Positions 1-62,865 of a stretch of 64,000 bases of DNA are shown here, piece by piece (the stretch's first letter is position 1; every line of letters begins with the position of its first letter). The notes below the pieces were generated by a model, which saw only the letters and a list, made by a program, of their open reading frames with translations, did not search any database and was not told the origin of the DNA. A program made the translations under genes and the position numbers. Source of the stretch: Eledone cirrhosa (taxonomy: Eukaryota); assembly GCA_964016885.1 (NCBI GenBank), contig OZ024741.1:319362001-319426000 (forward strand), read 5' to 3'.

Positions 1-185
1 AGGGATAGGTGATACATATAGTTATTTGCCAAGTAGCGTATGCCAAAGGTGCTCGATACTAGTGCCGGCAGTATTAAATATTCGAAGTGTTAATATTTAG
101 TGGGCTAGAGAGTTAGCAGAGCGTAAGCACGTGGGAAAGTGAAAAATCGGAGAATAGACCGTTAAAACATGTTTATTGAAAATAT

Positions 186-224
186 CACCTACGTACGTTT
201 CGCCCAGTTGGGCTTCTCAAGGGC
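186..224 (-). ncRNA. Minimal hammerhead ribozyme motif, U3-A8 core variant, in the PLE 3' pLTR
   Basis: Minus strand reads GCCC TTGAGAA GCCC-AACT-GGGC GAAA CGTACG TA GGTG. Palindromic stem III, weak stem I. Confidence 0.75.
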
Positions 225-475
225 ATAAACAGTCACAAGTGTTCCTTATATAGTTTGGAAAGAGATTTGGGGGTTAAATCGACATCAAGATTCGTCGCTC
301 GCAAAAATATCTTGTTTTGATTTTGCAGCAGGTCAAGGGAGGTAACTTTGGCCGGTGTTAGGGCAGTCTTTCCCGGATAATTTTTGGTATGCAGGGATCG
401 TTTTCTGGGTGTTGTTTTGCTGCGCCTGCCCGCCGGGGTGTTAAGATTTGTTGCAGGGAGATCCAGTGTGTTATT

Positions 476-2360
476 TCACTCTCCATTCTTAACCCATCTA
501 AAGAAGGATATTTTTAAGCGATGTGTACAACTTATCGCTGTTTCAGCTCTGCTGTTGATGAGCTCGTGGGGTGCAGTTATGATGTGGTAGAGCTCCATGA
601 GGCAAAGATCGCATTTCCTCTTGAAGTTGTACGGTGCAGCCCTGTCGACAATCTCCCAGTGCGTGGAGAAGCTAATGTTTAAGTCCTTTAGTGATGTGAT
701 GTAGTCCGCGAGCGAGGTGGAGTGCCTTAATTTTCTATTTGTGAAAGAGTGGAGATGTGTTCGAAACCTAATTTTGAACGGGCCGGAGGTGGCCCCTATA
801 TAATGTTTAACGCTATTGTGGCTAGTAATAGTGCATCTATATATAACCCTATCGGTCAAGCAGTATCCTCTAAGGGGGCACCGTCCTCTGTCGCGGCAGT
901 TGCAATTTCTGTCGCTGTTCCGTCTATTTCCCACGATAAGGCTATCATTGTTGTTGCCTACGTTGTTAGCTGTGATACCGCAGCTGTCGTTAGCACAATT
1001 ATAACCCACAGCACGCGGGATGGTGCGATTGTTATTCCGCACGCCATGTTTTGCATGCTCCCCAGTCACTTCGCGGTCATTCTGGTTGCGTCTGCGGATG
1101 CCGTTGCCAACACTATTGGATGCTGCCAGGGAGTTGTTAAGGCCAATACAGTTATTGTCAGGTGTAGGTGCGTCTGCGTCGAGGTGCTGTGTCTTGGTGA
1201 TCTTACTGTGGTTCGTTGTTCCTATGATGTCTGCTAGGTTAGGAGTAGTAGAGAAGGATATTTTTATATTGTTCCTATTAAGAATTTTTCTATACCTATG
1301 GTTGGGTGGGAAGTTCTTCTCTAAGGCTTCGAAGAATATCCGGGGTATGTTGGAGGCCACACTTCGAGAGTAGGGGGTGGGTGGGTGGAACTATAGGACG
1401 TTACGGTGGCGATTACGTGTCCTTGTACTTTTGCTACGGGTGGTTCCATCTAAGTGATCGCTCTTATGTGTGTTAATGCGCTGTCGCCCGTTCGGTGCCC
1501 CTTTCACTTTATGCTCGGGTGCACTCTTTCTACCACTTCCATGTTTATGTACACGAAGATGTTGGTTGGAAGGCGTTGGTAGTAGGCCGTCGCCTTTGTT
1601 GGTTTTGTAATAGGGGAATAGTTTGAGTAATCTACAGTATTCACCGTCGCCGGGGACGTGATCTTTGGTGCGGTTATCTATTCTATTATATCCGACTTTA
1701 CCGAGGTCGCCGCGTGATCGGTTATAGGTATGGCTTACTATAACGTTAGTTTTATGAGGGGGGTGGTTTCTAGAGCTAGCGTTAGGGATGTAGGAAATTC
1801 CTCGGTTAAAGCCGGCGCTTATCAGGGCCCTATTGTAGTAATCAGCCGCTTGGTTGAAGATATCCTCATTGGCGGATAGTCTCGAGATTCTATGTGAGAT
1901 ACTATAGACTATGGAGTTAAGAGTCTGCTTAGGGTGGTTGGAGGCATAATTAATATAAGAGAGGCACTCTCCAGGCTTATGGTATGGCTTGTATAAGCCC
2001 GTACTCAACTCCAGGGTCACGTCCAGGAAGTTGACAACCCTGTGGTTGAGGTCCATAGTTACGGATAGGCCGTATGACTTAAAGAACCTGTGTATATGTT
2101 TGTTAAGGTTCTCTATCCTACGGGGGCTATGGTTCCTAACGGTAAACAAGGCGTCGTCCCTATATACACCTCCTTGTAGAGCCGGTATTTCTTCCCTAAG
2201 CTTATGTAGGAGGTATATCCCAACCAGGTCGGTTGCTTGCGCTGAGTCGCTGGACCCCATCGTGACATCGAAGTTATCAGGACGGTTGGTTCTGGTCCAG
2301 TGGGAGCCTTCGAACTGGATAATGGTTCTACGTGCCGCTAGAATTATGTCTATTTCTTTT
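476..2360 (-). pseudogene. PLE RT-GIY-YIG ORF interrupted by one in-frame TAG (1391-1393)
   Basis: ORFs 1391-2260 and 476-1360 are in the same frame. RNVL*FHPP aligns with RNVTWFNPP of copy 2, i.e. TGG>TAG. Confidence 0.9.
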
Positions 2361-2383
2361 TATATATATATATCTGTCCTTAG

Positions 2384-2620
<237 letters not shown>

Positions 2621-2789
2621 ATAGTCGCTAATAATATGAGCTATGCGCAAAGGTATTTCAACTACAGATCTTCAATCGTGGTCACACACTAAACGAATTG
2701 TCTAACACCAAACACAACTCGAGTCCTAACTACTAATCATAACCAATTTCCTAACCAATCACCACCTTCACGATCATGATTACTGGTGA

Positions 2790-3190
2790 TGTTTTTTCCT
2801 CTGCTTTTCTTCCCCGCTTGCATGTATTGGACTGATCTTTTCCAGCACAACCTCCCTCCATCTACAATGTCCCTTCATCATCTCCTTTGTCGTGTTGAGC
2901 CTTTTGAGATCCACTCTTATTACTTCTTCTCGCTAGGTCTTCCTTGGCCTTCCACTACTGCAGCTTCCTTCAATTAGGAACTCATGGCATTTTTTCACCC
3001 AATAATCATTATCTATACGCAGCACATGTCCATACCAGCACATTCCTCTCTCTCGCACACTACATTTGATTATTTATATACCTAGTTTCTCTCCCAACCC
3101 TACCATGCTTTGCCGTTCATGCATATTAACATCAAACATCTATCTAAGCAGGCTCAATTTATTTCTCCCATGTCTCCACATATCCTCTGT
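2790..3190 (-). mobile_element. Decayed RTE-type LINE 3' fragment
   Basis: Minus-strand translation WYGHVLRIDNDYWVKK...GRPRKT, typical RTE C-terminus with stops. Confidence 0.65.
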
Positions 3191-3309
3191 ATAATAAATT
3201 TAATAAATTGTACTAAATTTTATTGCACATTACTGTATGCACTAACATACACGCACAAACAAACAACATAAAGCATACAAACAAACAAAATTAATAAATC
3301 TGATTTTCT

Positions 3310-3482
3310 AGTCTCCCTCACCATCCTCCGGGGAAACGCTTTCTCTATTCTGTCCGTCGGGGCCGAGCAGTGGCCAGCGCGTGGGCCCCCATTTGCTCAC
3401 AATAGTGAGAGATGAGGAAAGTGGGAGAGACGGAGGCAGTGGCAGTGAGAGTTTGGTTCTTTTGTGTTCGGATCTGGTGTAT
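3310..3482 (+). mobile_element. CRE-clade LINE 3' end fragment
   Basis: VSLTILRGNAFSIL (CRE RLE C-terminal xxQRGNA-type motif). Homologous to 30797-30995 on the minus strand. Confidence 0.6.
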
Positions 3483-3486
3483 ATGC

Positions 3487-3777
3487 AGGGGCCTAGCTTG
3501 CCTTAAAAATGTGTGGGACAAACCAACATTTGTTGATTCTTAAAGGAGCATAAATTACTTATGGTGCCTTTCCCGGACCCTATCACATAAGTAAAATTTT
3601 ACGCTAATTAAATTTTATATATTCAAATGAAGTTCAGATATAAAAAAATAAGCTTAAAAAAGAATTTATTATATCAAATAAACAAAAAATAAAATATAGA
3701 CGTTTGAAAAAGTGTGTGTGTGTGTGTGTGTGGGGAGGGGACTTGTCCCCTGGTACCTCCCCTGAAACAAGGCACTT
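3487..3777. mobile_element. Non-autonomous DNA transposon/MITE-like dispersed repeat
   Basis: About 210 bp recur inverted at 54250-54475. Imperfect terminal inverted ends (caggggcc..cttg / caaggcacttg). Confidence 0.5.
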
Positions 3778-14199: not shown

Positions 14200-14577
14200 A
14201 GTTGGCTTCGTTTATTCCAATTCGCTGCTATACATATTTCAGTGACAGCCATTATTGGTTGTGACCTCATCAGGCAGTAAAATTTTAGGCAGAAAAACAA
14301 GAAAACATGATGTTGTAATGGTTTCTACCCTGTTAATTCATCGATATGTTCATCTCATGGGTGTGTTGTTAGCCCTCACGTATGATTCCAGTTCCTTTGA
14401 GGACTAACAACACACCAAGGAGCTGGACATATCGATGAATTAACAGGGTAGAACCCATTACAACATCATGTTTTCCTGTTTTTTCTGCCTAAATTCTTAC
14501 TGCCTGATGAGGTCACAGCGAATAATGGCTGTCACTGAAATATGTATAGCAGCGAATTGGAATAAACGAAGCCAACT
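14200..14577. repeat. About 178-bp inverted repeat (fold-back), each arm with a hammerhead (14225-14277 minus; 14500-14552 plus)
   Basis: Arms 14200-14378 and 14398-14577. CTGC CTGATGA GGTCACAGC..GCTGTCACT GAAA TATGTA TA GCAG. Confidence 0.85.
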
Positions 14578-20432: not shown

Positions 20433-20434
<2 letters not shown>

Positions 20435-20626
20435 CGAAGGAAGTGTAGTAATAAACCAGGTGGACCATAACGCACCAGAGTACTCAATACTTAGGGTAGT
20501 AGAGTGGGTAATAGGAAAATGTTCAAGACCCCAATGGCAGAGCTCAAGCCGTTCCGACGGCTATTTCTGGATTAAATTAATCGAAACGGCTTGAGCTCTG
20601 CCGTCGGGGTCTTGAACATTTTCCTA
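20433..20626. mobile_element. Family A mini fold-back (PLE copy-2 pLTR end + tail) in (TA)n
   Basis: Homologous to 59230-59370; inverted arm 20581-20626. Confidence 0.88.
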
Positions 20627-21674: not shown

Positions 21675-21817
21675 TAGGAAAAGAGTCAGGACCCCGACGG
21701 CTGAGCTCCGGCCGTTTCGACATCTAGCTGTCGAAACGGCCGGAGCTCAGCCGTTGGGGTCCTGACTCTTTTCCTATTACCCACTCTACTACTCCAAGTA
21801 TCGAGTACTCTGGTGCG
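21675..21817. mobile_element. Family A mini fold-back
   Basis: Near-perfect ~100-nt hairpin 21675-21776 plus truncated tail. Confidence 0.88.
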
Positions 21818-25891: not shown

Positions 25892-26076
25892 TGAAAAGAG
25901 TCAGGACCCCGACGGCTGAGCTCCGGCGGTTTCGTCAGCTAGATCTAGCTGTCGAAACGGCCGGGGCTCAGCCGTCGGGGTTCTGACTCTTTTCCTATTA
26001 CCCACTCTACTACCCTAAGTATAGAGTATTCTGATGCGTTATGGTCCACCTGGTATCTTACCACACCTTCTTTGTT
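25892..26076. mobile_element. Family A mini fold-back with full tail
   Basis: Hairpin centred on ctagatctag; tail ends tttgtt(AT)n. Confidence 0.88.
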
Positions 26077-28443: not shown

Positions 28444-28445
<2 letters not shown>

Positions 28446-28699
28446 CGAAGGAAATGTGGTAAGGAACCAGATGGACCATAACGTACCAAAGTACTCAATA
28501 TTTAGGGTAGTAGAGTGGGTAATAGGAACGAGTAGGACCCCGACGGCTGAGCTCAAGCCGTTTCGACGGCTAATTCTGGACATGGGATATAGTTTCGTAT
28601 GTAATTTGTTTGAACTATTAATTAAAGATTGAAATCAAACACGAGTCCAGAATTAGCCGTCGAAACGGCTTGAGCTCAGCCGTCGGGGTCCTACTCGTT

Positions 28700-28703
<4 letters not shown>
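28444..28703. mobile_element. Family A mini fold-back with captured flanking DNA as spacer
   Basis: Arms 28522-28580 and 28645-28703; spacer 28582-28641 duplicates 28328-28387. Confidence 0.9.
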
Positions 28704-28754
<51 letters not shown>

Positions 28755-36429: not shown

Positions 36430-37830
<1,401 letters not shown>

Positions 37831-38612: not shown

Positions 38613-38693
38613 AGAAAAATCAATCTATCGACGCATAAATAAATATTTTGAGCCCTCTTCTGATTTTGGCTTTCGTAATTGTTATTACTAATA

Positions 38694-38737
38694 ACCGTCG
38701 AAACGGCTTGAGCTCTGCCGTCGGGGTCATACTTTTT

Positions 38738-38741
<4 letters not shown>
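38694..38741 (+). mobile_element. Family A single arm ending TTCCTA(TA)n
   Basis: ccgtcgaaacggcttgagctctgccgtcggggtc. Confidence 0.8.
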
Positions 38742-38829
<88 letters not shown>

Positions 38830-39521: not shown

Positions 39522-39652
39522 TAGGAAAAGAGCTACGACCTCGACGGCTGAGCTCCGGCCGTTTCGATAGCTAATACCCACTCTACTACCCTAAGTATCG
39601 AGTACTCTGGTGTGTTATGGTCCTCCTGGTTTCTTACCACACCTTCTTTGTT
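39522..39652. mobile_element. Family A element, one arm deleted, full tail
   Basis: Inverted arm 39522-39572 joined to tail 39575-39652. Confidence 0.82.
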
Positions 39653-40082: not shown

Positions 40083-40176
40083 CTTAGTCATTTTTGGATT
40101 TCCTGGTACTATACCTCTTACTATTATATATATATGTCAGATTGGAGGTGGTAAAACCCAGTTAGAGCATTACTCA

Positions 40177-40326
40177 TCTGAGTACTCGATAACTGGGGTA
40201 GTAGAGTGGGTAATATGAAAAAATTCAGGACCCCAACGGCTGAGCTCTGGGCGTGTTTTAACAGCTTGATCAGTTCGGATCTAGCTGTTGAAATGACAGG
40301 AGCTCAGCCGTCGGGGTCATGAATTT

Positions 40327-57236: not shown

Positions 57237-59231
<1,995 letters not shown>

Positions 59232-59322
59232 CGAAGGAAATGTGGTAAGGAACCAGGTGGACCATAACGCACCAAAGTACTCAATACTTGAGGTAGTAGA
59301 GTGGGTAATAGGAACCAGTAAG

Positions 59323-59416
59323 ACCCCGACAGCTGAGCTCAAGCCGTTTCGACGGCTAATTCTGGACTAAATGAACATTTATCCTGGTATTTAAATAGCC
59401 GATCTTCTCAAGGGGT
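59323..59416 (-). ncRNA. Hammerhead ribozyme, U3-A8 variant, sense to the PLE ORF (family A master)
   Basis: Reverse complement of 62723-62816. Confidence 0.88.
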
Positions 59417-60514
59417 AATTCCATATATGGTCAAAGTGATTGTCAAAAATCAGTAGTAATTCTGTGGTTGCAGATTAGTAGGGGAGATGGTGGCTAAACC
59501 TGCCAGTAGGAGAAAGAGGGGAGGGGGTGGAGTAGACCCAATCAAGCGTTGGTAGTGCCAGCTACAGCTGGGCATGAGGTCAAAGAAGATACAGGGGAGG
59601 GGGAGGGGGAGGAAGTCGGAACGGTAGGTAGAACAATGGGGGGTAAAAATAGGAAAGAAAAAATACTGAGAGTGAAGAAAAGCAAATAAGTGTAAAGAAA
59701 AAATTAAATTCTACGACCTAGGTGTCAGGCTATTGTTAGGCGAGAATAAAATAAAGAAAGAAAGAAAGAAGTAAATAAATAAATAAATAAATAAATAAGG
59801 AAATAAGTAAAAGAACTAGGTGGGACGAATTAGGCGAGGACCCTTTTAAGAGGTATAAGTACGTAAATGATACGGTGACTGGTCAACAAAAGGGGCCAAA
59901 ATACTAAAGAGACTACCACGAAATAAACAATAAAGGTTTCCATCCCGGGCCAGCAACGACCCAGTGCAGCAAAGTGAACTTGTACGACATAATAATTCTG
60001 AGTCCCGGGAAAAATATATACTAATGCTAACTCTAAAAGATCTAAAACAAGCTACAAGAAAGTTCGTACGAAATAAAGGTAGAATACGGAGAAATAAGTT
60101 CAGAATCCACCCCGCCCAAAAGAAAAGCGAAGCAAGAAATACTGAAACGAAAAAATAAGGCATAAGTGCCACTAAGAAATATAGAGGGCACAGAGAATAG
60201 TGGGAGCGGTCGGAAAAGGGGGGCAAGTATCCGGGGTCTAAGCCAACTGCTATAAAGGGCGGAGTCCGCCAAATCTATCAAAGACTAGGGGAGGGGGGAG
60301 TGGGGGTACTAAGGCTACATGGGGCCAAAGGGCATCCTCGGGTGGGCGAGAAAAGACGCCGACAAAGGAGAAGAGCTGGGGTAGAAGGACAAAGGAGAGA
60401 GGGGGGAAGGAAATAAAGGATGCGATAAAAGAATACAAAGAAGATCTTACGTCTTCCTTGGCAAGCAGGGGTTACCCATTGCAAAATCGGCAACTGGGGT
60501 GTTATAGCCCTAGT

Positions 60515-62095
60515 CTACCCCCCCGGGTCATTATGGGGTTTGAGGGCGAGGTAAGTCCTACGCAATCTATGTTTACATGCAGTAACCAGTTCATCTTTCT
60601 TGTTTAGGAGTTGGTCCGTCGAAAACAGCATTTGTAAAGTTTCCTCCGAGCATAAATTGCACGGACGGCGTCCTCCCGTGTAAGAATTGGCTCTGGACAG
60701 TAATCTCCAAGTGAGATCATAGGTAATGTTGTTGTCCTTGAGGTCCCATATGTGGCCCGAAAGTGTAGTGGCGTGACGCCGGGCCGGGTTTCGGAAGGTA
60801 TGTCTATGTTGGTATAGCCGGGTCTTGAAGTCACATGCGGTAAGTCCTATATAGGCTTTGTTGGAGGTATCCGTCCTCACGTTGCACTGGTAGATCACAT
60901 TACGGTCTCTGCATCTATTGTCGAGTGGGCAAATAGATCTATCCGGGCAGTTACACCTCCTGGTCGGTTCTCCACTGCTATTTAGGTTATTTCTGCCATC
61001 GGGGTTGAGTTTTTTGTTGTTAGAGGAGACGATGTTTTGTGCGAAGTTTGGTGTAGTGCTGTAAGAGAGTTTGATGGTATTTTTGTTAATTATGTTGTGG
61101 TAGCGGTGTTGTAATGGGAAGTGTTTTTCAATGAGCCTAAAGAATAGTTTCCCGATGGGAGTAGTCACCTCTGCGTTGTGGGGAGGATTGAACCATGTTA
61201 CATTGCGTGAGCGGCGGTGTCTCCTGCTGGTTCCGCTAATGGGATCTGGACAGTAGGATATTTCCTCCCGGAAACCACTCCGCTTGAGGGCCTGGTTGTA
61301 ATAAGGCGCATGTTCATCGAATATCCGCTCATTAGCTGACAAACGGGATATGCGGAGGGAGATGTTTTTGACCAGGTTGTTTGTGATGTTCCTAGGATGG
61401 TTTGATCGGCGGTGGATGTAGTGCAGATTGTCATTAGGTTTCCTGTATGGGTAGTACAGGTCGTTTTCGAGGTCGAGGGTTACGTCCAGGAAGTTTACTC
61501 GGGTCAGGGACGTTTGTAGGGTTATTTTAAATCCCCAGTCGCGGAAGAATCTGATTAATTGTTTCCGGACCCGATCTGTACTACTGGGGTTGTACCCTTT
61601 AAGGGTAAGGAGCCCATCATCACGGTACAATCCACCACCGAATGCAGGAAACATATCAGTGAGTTTGGCTATTAGGAATAATCCTATAAGATCAGTGACC
61701 TCCGCCGAATCCGTGGCGCCCATGCTGACGTCGAAGGGTGAGTCGGGAGCTCTTTTTATCCATTTAGAGTCGTCAAAGAGTAAGACTGTCTTCCTGGCGT
61801 GGAGGATGATTTTTCTTTCCTGGTCGGTGATGGGCACAAGTGTTTCGGCGAAGTCCAAGGCGGCAGTAAGTAGCGGTAAGGTGATTGAAGCATAGTAGCT
61901 CTCTATGTCGAACTGTATGAATTTAGTTTCTCGTTTATCCTCCATATTGCTGAACCAGGAGATTACTTCCTGGGTGTTGATCCATAGGCTAAGTCGGGTG
62001 TCTTGCTTGACTTTTGGTATCACGCGGTCTAGGATTTTTTTGCTGATTCTCCCTATGTCGGACTTCGTTGGGTTAATAAGCCTGATGGAGGGTTT
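60515..62095 (-). CDS. PLE reverse transcriptase + GIY-YIG endonuclease, open frame, 5'-truncated (no native start)
   Basis: IRLINPTKSDIGRISK, FIQFDIESYY, MGATDSAEVTDLIG, GLYRDDGL, NFLDVTL, CNCPDRSICPLDNRC, VIYQC..YIGLT..FKTRLYQH, CNLCSEE, LLNKK. Confidence 0.93.
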   Translation of the reverse strand, partial: KPSIRLINPTKSDIGRISKKILDRVIPKVKQDTRLSLWINTQEVISWFSNMEDKRETKFIQFDIESYYASITLPLLTAALDFAETLVPITDQERKIILHARKTVLLFDDSKWIKRAPDSPFDVSMGATDSAEVTDLIGLFLIAKLTDMFPAFGGGLYRDDGLLTLKGYNPSSTDRVRKQLIRFFRDWGFKITLQTSLTRVNFLDVTLDLENDLYYPYRKPNDNLHYIHRRSNHPRNITNNLVKNISLRISRLSANERIFDEHAPYYNQALKRSGFREEISYCPDPISGTSRRHRRSRNVTWFNPPHNAEVTTPIGKLFFRLIEKHFPLQHRYHNIINKNTIKLSYSTTPNFAQNIVSSNNKKLNPDGRNNLNSSGEPTRRCNCPDRSICPLDNRCRDRNVIYQCNVRTDTSNKAYIGLTACDFKTRLYQHRHTFRNPARRHATTLSGHIWDLKDNNITYDLTWRLLSRANSYTGGRRPCNLCSEETLQMLFSTDQLLNKKDELVTACKHRLRRTYLALKPHNDPGG

Positions 62096-62722
62096 AGATC
62101 TTTTAGAGTTAGCATTAGTATATATTTTTCCCGGGACTCAGAATTATTATGTCGTACAAGTTCACTTTGCTGCACTGGGTCGTTGCTGGCCCGGGATGGA
62201 AACCTTTATTGTTTATTTCGTGGTAGTCTCTTTAGTATTTTGGCCCCTTTTGTTGACCAGTCACCGTATCATTTACGTACTTATACCTCTTAAAAGGGTC
62301 CTTGCCTAATTCGTCCCACCTAGTTCTTTTACTTATTTCCTTATTTATTTATTTATTTATTTATTTACTTCTTTCTTTCTTTCTTTATTTTATTCTCGCC
62401 TAACAATAGCCTGACACCTAGGTCGTAGAATTTAATTTTTTCTTTACACTTATTTGCTTTTCTTCACTCTCAGTATTTTTTCTTTCCTATTTTTACCCCC
62501 CATTGTTCTACCTACCGTTCCGACTTCCTCCCCCTCCCCCTCCCCTGTATCTTCTTTGACCTCATGCCCAGCTGTAGCTGGCACTACCAACGCTTGATTG
62601 GGTCTACTCCACCCCCTCCCCTCTTTCTCCTACTGGCAGGTTTAGCCACCATCTCCCCTACTAATCTGCAACCACAGAATTACTACTGATTTTTGACAAT
62701 CACTTTGACCATATATGGAATT

Positions 62723-62816
62723 ACCCCTTGAGAAGATCGGCTATTTAAATACCAGGATAAATGTTCATTTAGTCCAGAATTAGCCGTCGAAACGGCTTGA
62801 GCTCAGCTGTCGGGGT
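62723..62816 (+). ncRNA. Hammerhead ribozyme, U3-A8 variant, in the inverted pLTR
   Basis: ACCCC TTGAGAA GATCGGCTATT..AATTAGCCGTC GAAA CGGC TTGAGCTCA GCTG TC GGGGT; predicted cleavage after 62811. Confidence 0.88.
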
Positions 62817-62826
62817 CTTACTGGTT

Positions 62827-62865
<39 letters not shown>

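Follow-up and report, generated by a model that had tools for sequence, protein, structure and literature searches.

Penelope-like elements of the Hydra clade are described in the text of PMC8557442 by an RWK motif close to the N-terminus, DKT instead of DKG, a CxCx5C linker, CxxC and CxH motifs around the E and N residues, the absence of a CCHH motif, insertion at (TA)n and a hammerhead ribozyme at the 3' end. The same text calls the function of hammerheads in Penelope-like elements unclear and considers them possible parasites. Variation within the hammerhead core is also on record: natural covariation of core positions 3 and 8 to U3-A8, with in vitro activity cited, is described in the text of Perreault et al. 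2011 (PMC3088659), and about 1,300 U3-A8 motifs in Schistosoma Penelope elements are given in that of Cervera and de la Pena (PMC4209133). For the anole element PAc, the account in PMC11167929 gives two internal start sites of reverse transcription and a tail. Hammerhead mutants left insertion in vitro unaffected, i.e. cleavage was unnecessary in that one in vitro system, while the mutants C3G and G8C, the nearest evidence on 3-8 mismatches in these sources, abolished cleavage.

Here we analysed a 64,000-nucleotide stretch of the Eledone cirrhosa genome (assembly GCA_964016885.1, contig OZ024741.1, positions 319,362,001 to 319,426,000, forward strand), which we call the window, and in it the element at 59231-62831. 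By its sequence it belongs to a very young Penelope-like retrotransposon of Hydra type, of which it is a copy truncated at the 5' end. Genome copies were searched in the 3.0 Gb assembly (labelled G000), where the repeat unit of tandem arrays elsewhere is 3,531 bp long and holds an open reading frame (ORF) of 717 residues that begins at unit position 94. The copies indicate that the 3-8 pair of the hammerhead was lost and later regained while the lineage kept transposing; the loss is plain and the regain likely. This loss and likely regain in a continuously active lineage is the new part, the kind of element and the U3-A8 pair both being known. Among titles and the first lines of abstracts we found no report of an amplified C3·A8 state or of a return to U3, and a prior report is possible, e.g. 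in the supplements of PMC4209133 or PMC3088659.

The hammerhead and its 3-8 pair

Each inverted arm of the window element carries one hammerhead, at 62723-62816 (+) and 59416-59323 (-), with stem I ACCCC/GGGGU, core UUGAGAA (62728-62734), GAAA, a stem III closed by UGAGCUC and predicted cleavage after C62811. The type I core (U4 G5 A6 A9 G12 A13 A14 A15.1-U16.1 H17) and the three stems are all present, and the 3-8 pair is a Watson-Crick pair, U3-A8. An initial annotation of this DNA had reported a core of UUGAGAA instead of CUGANGA, taken U3-A8 as the 3-8 pair and described a full stem III with a palindromic closing loop. We see the same core in both arms and the same pair, and stem III has 5-6 bp; the novelty that the annotation attached to U3-A8 is lost, as the pair was already published (PMC3088659; PMC4209133, with its ~1,300 Schistosoma hits).

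The three-way hammerhead fold is the minimum-energy structure, with a predicted probability of 0.75 for stem III, yet it is no stabler than shuffles (z -0.51), and the case for its reality lies in conservation across the family and not in folding energy. Conservation was read from 52 copies (at most 14 per group of the 104 found, several with deletions left out, and the window standing for its own subfamily). Across them, 90.4% of cells pair. Stem II has three pairs in which both bases differ, each amounting to about one event between subfamilies, and stems I and III have none. Genome matches numbered 7,440 for the pattern of the element lineage and 2,041 for the pattern of a second element in the window (copy 1, see below), against 0 and 1 for the reversed controls, so the core is not a chance occurrence. 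Rfam returned no hammerhead among the 150 matches listed of 220. Two hammerhead copies can also pair with each other through the palindrome (-63.3 versus 2 x -23.4 kcal/mol). A switch by a competing hairpin that buries GAAA was considered and is not claimed, its predicted probability being ~0.2 against the 0.75 of stem III.

The census pattern left core positions 3, 7 and 8 free. In its first 100 matches position 8 was always A, position 7 took all four bases, and position 3 was U in 74, C in 25 and G in 1. Genome-wide, 1,858 of the 7,440 cores, about a quarter of the lineage, carry the mismatch C3·A8, ~25 times what decay produces at an adjacent site. A8 is kept in 98.9% of cores; just 79 lack it, of which 11 are C3-G8, all dispersed. 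C3 is a substitution and not a slip in a C run, and it occurs in both arms of single insertions, so it was already present in the template RNA. The remaining core is kept in all subfamily groups, those with C3 included (GAAA intact in 34 of 36 C3 copies, UC likewise in 34), and among the first 100 C3 matches 95 have G at position 7. By this count the 3-8 pair is not constant in the lineage, and ancestors spread to about 1,900 sites with the mismatch. As read from these copies, the hammerhead fold is conserved and the 3-8 pair is not absolutely needed for spread.

The selection on the pair that the initial annotation proposed is, if taken as strict, at odds with a quarter of cores being C3·A8 in subfamilies that transposed. 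The annotation had argued for selection from copy 1, whose core is an identical UUGAGAA with different stems. The core and stems are as it described; the shared G7 carries no weight, since position 7 takes all four bases in the lineage.

The order of events was read from a tree of the ORF (unit 1500-2247), built from 21 fetched copies that keep at least 450 nt of that region and rooted on the two sister-family rows that were long enough. All 32 distinct copies read from this older sister family have U3, and 30 of them have A8. Old U3 copies split first in the rooted tree, followed by a ladder of C3 copies and then by a young U3 clade that includes the window copy (support 100/99), nested inside three starred branches whose other rows are all C3. 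The ORF-only tree gives two changes at position 3, and a single C3 clade is rejected (p-AU 1.4e-8). A tree of the hammerhead region, on 44 of 83 rows, in which truncated copies sat on long branches, gave way to the ORF tree. Shared ORF changes fall on codon positions 1/2/3 as 31/16/79, versus 57/80/72 for singletons, and within the C3 ladder as 6/2/10 and 0/0/11; this bias argues that the C3·A8 masters were active, with a protein under purifying selection.

An older U3 subfamily could also have passed its U3 to the young copies by recombination or gene conversion, and the older U3 copies are indeed abundant, template switching is frequent and junctions are complex. We consider this origin improbable, as young copies agree in the bases flanking position 3, on either side, with the late C3 grade and not with the old U3 group, which favours back mutation, and one copy (L185) carries U3 on otherwise C3-type flanks.

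The window copy and its family

The features of the element and its flanks are, in window positions:

59231-62092, minus strand: main 5'-truncated copy, unit positions 670-3531 of 3,531 bp, from alignment to the full tandem unit
60515-62095, minus strand: ORF remnant, residues 192-717 (reverse transcriptase (RT), thumb, linker, endonuclease), without its native start, from the frame and comparison with the family protein
61616-61627, minus strand: RT catalytic motif YRDD (residues 348-351), invariant in 97 of 97 aligned homologues
60911-60955, minus strand: Hydra-type linker CxCx5C-PL-x3-C (residues 572-586), each Cys in 94-96 of 97 rows
60569-60898, minus strand: GIY-YIG-type endonuclease by motif conservation (VIY..YIG, R617, E676, N689; CxxC, CxH; no CCHH)
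59231-60514, minus strand: 3' untranslated region or pseudo-long terminal repeat (pLTR), 1.28 kb, from the ORF end and unit alignment
59323-59416, minus strand: hammerhead of type I, read in element sense, with its U3-A8 core at 59411-59405 and a stem II arm of 54 nt; cleavage is predicted after 59328
59231-59307, minus strand: 77-nt tail at one end only, with a hairpin-like motif ACTC-N16-GAGT-AC at 59302-59277
62093-62831, plus strand: inverted second copy, unit positions 2716-3454, with 4 shared bases at 62093-62096
62723-62816, plus strand: second copy of the hammerhead, with its core at 62728-62734 and cleavage predicted after 62811
59171-59230, no strand: (TA)n target, left
62832-62865, no strand: (TA)n target, right

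The inverted arms (59308-60046 and 62093-62831) are 739 nt each (738 bp in the initial annotation) and differ by a single mismatch, at 59836/62303, which that annotation had reported together with the (TA)n tracts on both sides, the TA targeting and the youth of the element. The flanking tracts and the near-identical copies across the genome agree with that description. The main copy, in sense orientation, differs at 8 of 2,862 nt from one full unit of the tandem array at C1:437.2 Mb and is 99.5-99.9% identical to other tandem arrays; 40 of 416 candidate genome copies were scored and are ~100% identical to the window element, and a 29-mer specific to the subfamily occurs 2,106 times in the genome. 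The second copy is fused to the main one through the 4 common bases, and the inverted arm is best read as a by-product of insertion and not as a working long terminal repeat.

The annotation further described an open frame for RT and GIY-YIG. A stop-free minus-strand frame of 540 codons is present (62137-60515); it enters the family protein at residue 192 of 717, its leading 14 codons derive from the inverted arm, and its earliest Met is residue 242. The window copy lacks residues 1-191, the start codon, the upstream promoter-side sequence and the RWR and DKT motifs, and owing to this 5' truncation it is non-autonomous and not a driver, although its family is very probably autonomous. The view of the window copy as an autonomous, recently active driver, with U3-A8 under strict selection for cleavage, could draw on the open remainder of the frame, on arms that differ at 1 of 739 positions, on A8 in 98.9% of cores and on the U3-A8 shared by two families ~45% identical in the RT. 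Given the missing sequence and the 1,858 C3·A8 cores, it is very improbable. The short repeats in the window that match its 3' end are stubs of older subfamilies, 76-95% identical to it, and were therefore made by ancestors.

A structural model of the full 717-residue protein (pLDDT 92.9) has telomerase RTs as its best fold matches (Foldseek E 7e-9; VIA Z 17.4, root-mean-square deviation 7.0, 315 aligned), which together with the invariant YRDD identifies a telomerase-like RT. Pfam gave no match for either the truncated or the full protein, and a PDB profile search with the element protein gave 0 hits; the homologue P0001 matches PF01541 (GIY-YIG) in Pfam. VIY-x-YIG, R, E and N are kept in 94-95 of 97 homologue rows, which by motif places a GIY-YIG endonuclease in the same ORF. 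In the full unit RWR lies at residues 37-39, with K in the third place in 67 of 97 homologues, and DKT at 117-119. The 97-row alignment conserves C572/C574/C580, C670/C673 and C698/H700 and lacks CCHH, there being no Cys pair after VIY and no conservation of H639.

The element also has the tandem or inverted pLTR arrangement with a one-sided tail that is typical of Penelope-like elements. Its hammerhead stands at the 3' place typical of Hydra elements, but with a U3-A8 core versus the C3-G8 of 26 published Hydra rows. The element carries the defining motifs of the Hydra clade, and we read its family as new and of Hydra type, with a core variant that is already known. The likeness to the Hydra group that the annotation had drawn from the CxC-x5-CPL linker and TA targeting is supported by RWR, DKT, CxCx5C, CxxC, CxH and the lack of CCHH. 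The intact, near-identical tandem units would suit a first biochemical test of a Hydra-clade protein.

Insertion and the role of cleavage

The two outer ends of the window element lie at unit positions 3531 and 3454, one at each, and the same holds for 5 of 5 arrays examined. Among 182 end matches 158 are TA-flanked, and 149 of these 158 end at 3454 or 3531, in a sample biased by 30 loci picked for the 3531 end and with ends at 3532-3537 being the 3531 end plus shared TA letters. Both sites lie downstream of the predicted cleavage site (unit 3434), by 20 and 97 nt, and a 36-mer across that site occurs 9,523 times in the genome. The cDNA thus crosses the cleavage site, and the template RNA would have been uncut or religated.

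We hypothesize that protein made from a full tandem unit would nick (TA)n, and that cDNA synthesis would be primed from both sides of the cut, each strand using one of two internal RNA sites that are separated by 77 nt. Both cDNAs would end prematurely and be joined head to head through microhomology, which would produce the inverted arms and the one-sided tail. Cleavage would not be needed for insertion and might be mildly useful, e.g. in trimming read-through transcripts; a use of this kind would explain both the ongoing transposition of C3·A8 masters and the return of U3. We regard it as probable that the window element is such a twin-primed, 5'-truncated Hydra-type insertion, that its U3-A8 is a restored pair and that cleavage helps and is dispensable for insertion.

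Three further observations concern the ends and arms. Behind each end site, 3-5 nt or less from a TAT, stands the motif RCTC-N14/16-GAGY-AC, which encloses a CTAC hairpin (window 59302-59277 on the minus strand; unit 7-30 of the next tandem unit in L031). The 3' half of the subfamily hammerhead (unit 3348-3438) occurs 9,523 times versus 2,106 times for the 5' half. Most arms end within ~55 nt, in the stem II arm, and many insertions are tiny inverted twins.

A religated template is the core of another explanation, proposed in the text of PMC4209133, in which the hammerhead cuts and religates the unit RNA into circles and rolling-circle reverse transcription makes the tandem arrays. With RT starting 20 and 97 nt past the cut, a cleaved monomer would have to be circular to serve as template; units of one array share private variants (4 common to 3 units at C2:51.28 Mb), and unit position 746 reads C,T,C,T through the successive units of a four-unit array. 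The same patterns would arise from read-through transcripts of tandem donors, one C3·A8 insertion (L166) is also a partial tandem, and unprocessed RNA was the main substrate in vitro in the account of PMC11167929. Unit-length neighbours on the same strand gave 4 arrays among the first 100 young matches versus 1 among the first 100 C3 matches, a count made by eye, too small and confounded with age. We take the circle route to be rather unlikely.

That C3·A8 subfamilies transposed leaves two alternatives: insertion can do without cleavage, or hammerheads with C3·A8 still cut. On the second alternative the element and its history are the same and cleavage was always selected, with C3·A8 acting through a C·A wobble, with help from the element protein or from dimerisation, or in a slipped register with a C3-G7 pair. 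The intact core and stems of the 36 C3 copies fit it, as does G7 in 95 of 100 C3 matches where U3 subfamilies have all four bases; in the text of PMC11167929, moreover, the anole hammerhead cut only with protein present. Set against this, G7 of the C3 grade may be mere inheritance from one ancestor, the region may be kept because it binds protein or serves the start of RT (conservation extends past the ribozyme into the tail), the single 3-8 mismatches C3G and G8C abolished anole cleavage, and no C3-G8 subfamily arose. Continued cutting is, in our judgement, unlikely. A sharper version gives the middle subfamilies an active, undescribed core, with C3 paired to G7 or wobbling with A8, so that the ~1,900 sites would record a functional intermediate between two Watson-Crick-like states; this we find quite doubtful.

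Several points weigh against dispensable cleavage and a restored pair. Its premise is that C3·A8 strongly impairs cleavage and leaves a hammerhead nearly inactive, for which the nearest evidence is the loss of cleavage in the anole mutants C3G and G8C. The rest of the core and the three stems are conserved in the C3 grade, G7 included, which fits continued function. The branch that unites all C3 rows with the young clade has support of only 82/75 with an outgroup of two rows, and the tree holds 21 of thousands of copies, sampled from few contigs. The back change is a single event noticed post hoc, and selection for the return of U3 is only suggested. RNA reads (1 of 5 runs listed, share 0.09) gave one 200-nt contig and no evidence either way.

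What the lineage offers is a dated natural series, U3-A8 to C3·A8 to U3-A8, on a near-identical scaffold with hundreds to thousands of copies per state. It makes the need for cleavage testable, as the element either amplified through many masters with a crippled ribozyme or has a core that tolerates a mismatch thought to be disabling.

Related elements and comparison with known systems

Copy 1 (130-2359, minus strand) belongs to a second young family of Hydra type; it is truncated at the 5' end, and a stop separates its frames at 1391 and 1390. Its core UUGAGAA lies at 220-214 in a minimal hammerhead with stems unlike those of the 59231-62831 element, and with 2,041 matches of its type U3-A8 is common in the genome. 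The proteins of the two families are 45% identical in the RT part and 32% in the C-terminal part; intact relatives of copy 1 encode proteins of ~910 residues with two long insertions and have twin ends like those of the main element.

The window also holds 8 stub insertions of older subfamilies or the sister family, mostly inverted twins in (TA)n, 76-95% identical to the element's 3' end:

20434-20613, 21690-21817, 25905-26065 and 28445-28704: stub insertions
37231-37396, 38692-38742, 39534-39641 and 40148-40247: stub insertions

A distinct short (TA)n-associated family with a canonical CUGAUGA hammerhead, unrelated in sequence to the main element, flanks the insertion (59039, plus; 57296, minus; 15304, plus), and further canonical cores lie at 14273, 14504, 26971 and 47226. 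The arms of a twin insertion of another family (25450, minus; 25552, plus) differ at core position 3, C3-G8 versus U3·G8. Elsewhere in the genome, at G000:C2:356029914-356031748 (L103-L109), at least 7 units of 299 bp derive from the window subfamily, each comprising the hammerhead with a shortened stem II arm, the tail and the start of the next unit. This array resembles a non-coding repeat of the retrozyme type that arose from the element, an origin of such repeats argued for in the text of bioRxiv 10.64898/2026.07.22.740005. The array at G000:C1:437198051-437214409 (L031, L032, L036) has 4 full tandem units with C,T,C,T at unit 746, an alternation that may reflect a dimeric template, DNA duplication or an assembly effect.

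The closest relatives on record are the Hydra-clade elements Hydra-1_Obim and Penelope-13_HM (PMC8557442), which as described there share with this element an RWK-type motif, DKT, the linker, CxxC/CxH, the lack of CCHH, a C-terminal endonuclease, (TA)n and a 3' hammerhead. The protein likeness to Hydra-1_Obim was judged by eye from the text of that paper's supplement, and for Penelope-13_HM an inverted 5'-truncated copy is reported there, too, as in the window. The unit here is longer, 3,531 bp against the 'generally <3 kb' of that text. The hammerheads differ more: all 26 rows in File S2 of PMC8557442, found with a canonical descriptor, have C3, G8 and a short stem II, whereas the element has U3-A8 or C3·A8 and a 54-nt stem II arm.

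In its mode of insertion the element recalls PAc, the Poseidon element of Anolis carolinensis (Frangieh et al. 2024, PMC11167929), which as described has two internal RT start sites behind the hammerhead, a one-sided tail, AT-rich targets and tandem donors. PAc belongs to another clade and has its start sites inside the ORF, while here they lie before it, and the tail of 77 nt here compares with the 30-40 bp cited for Penelope in that text. In its hammerhead the element is closest to the Cercyon Penelope elements of Schistosoma mansoni (PMC4209133) and the variants of PMC3088659, which by those accounts have the same core swap, located in the pLTR, and a palindromic stem III that allows a dimer fold. 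Those hammerheads are minimal, whereas that of the element has a stem III of 5-6 bp and a predicted monomer fold. The amplified C3·A8 state and the return to U3 described here appear in neither text, in the sections consulted.

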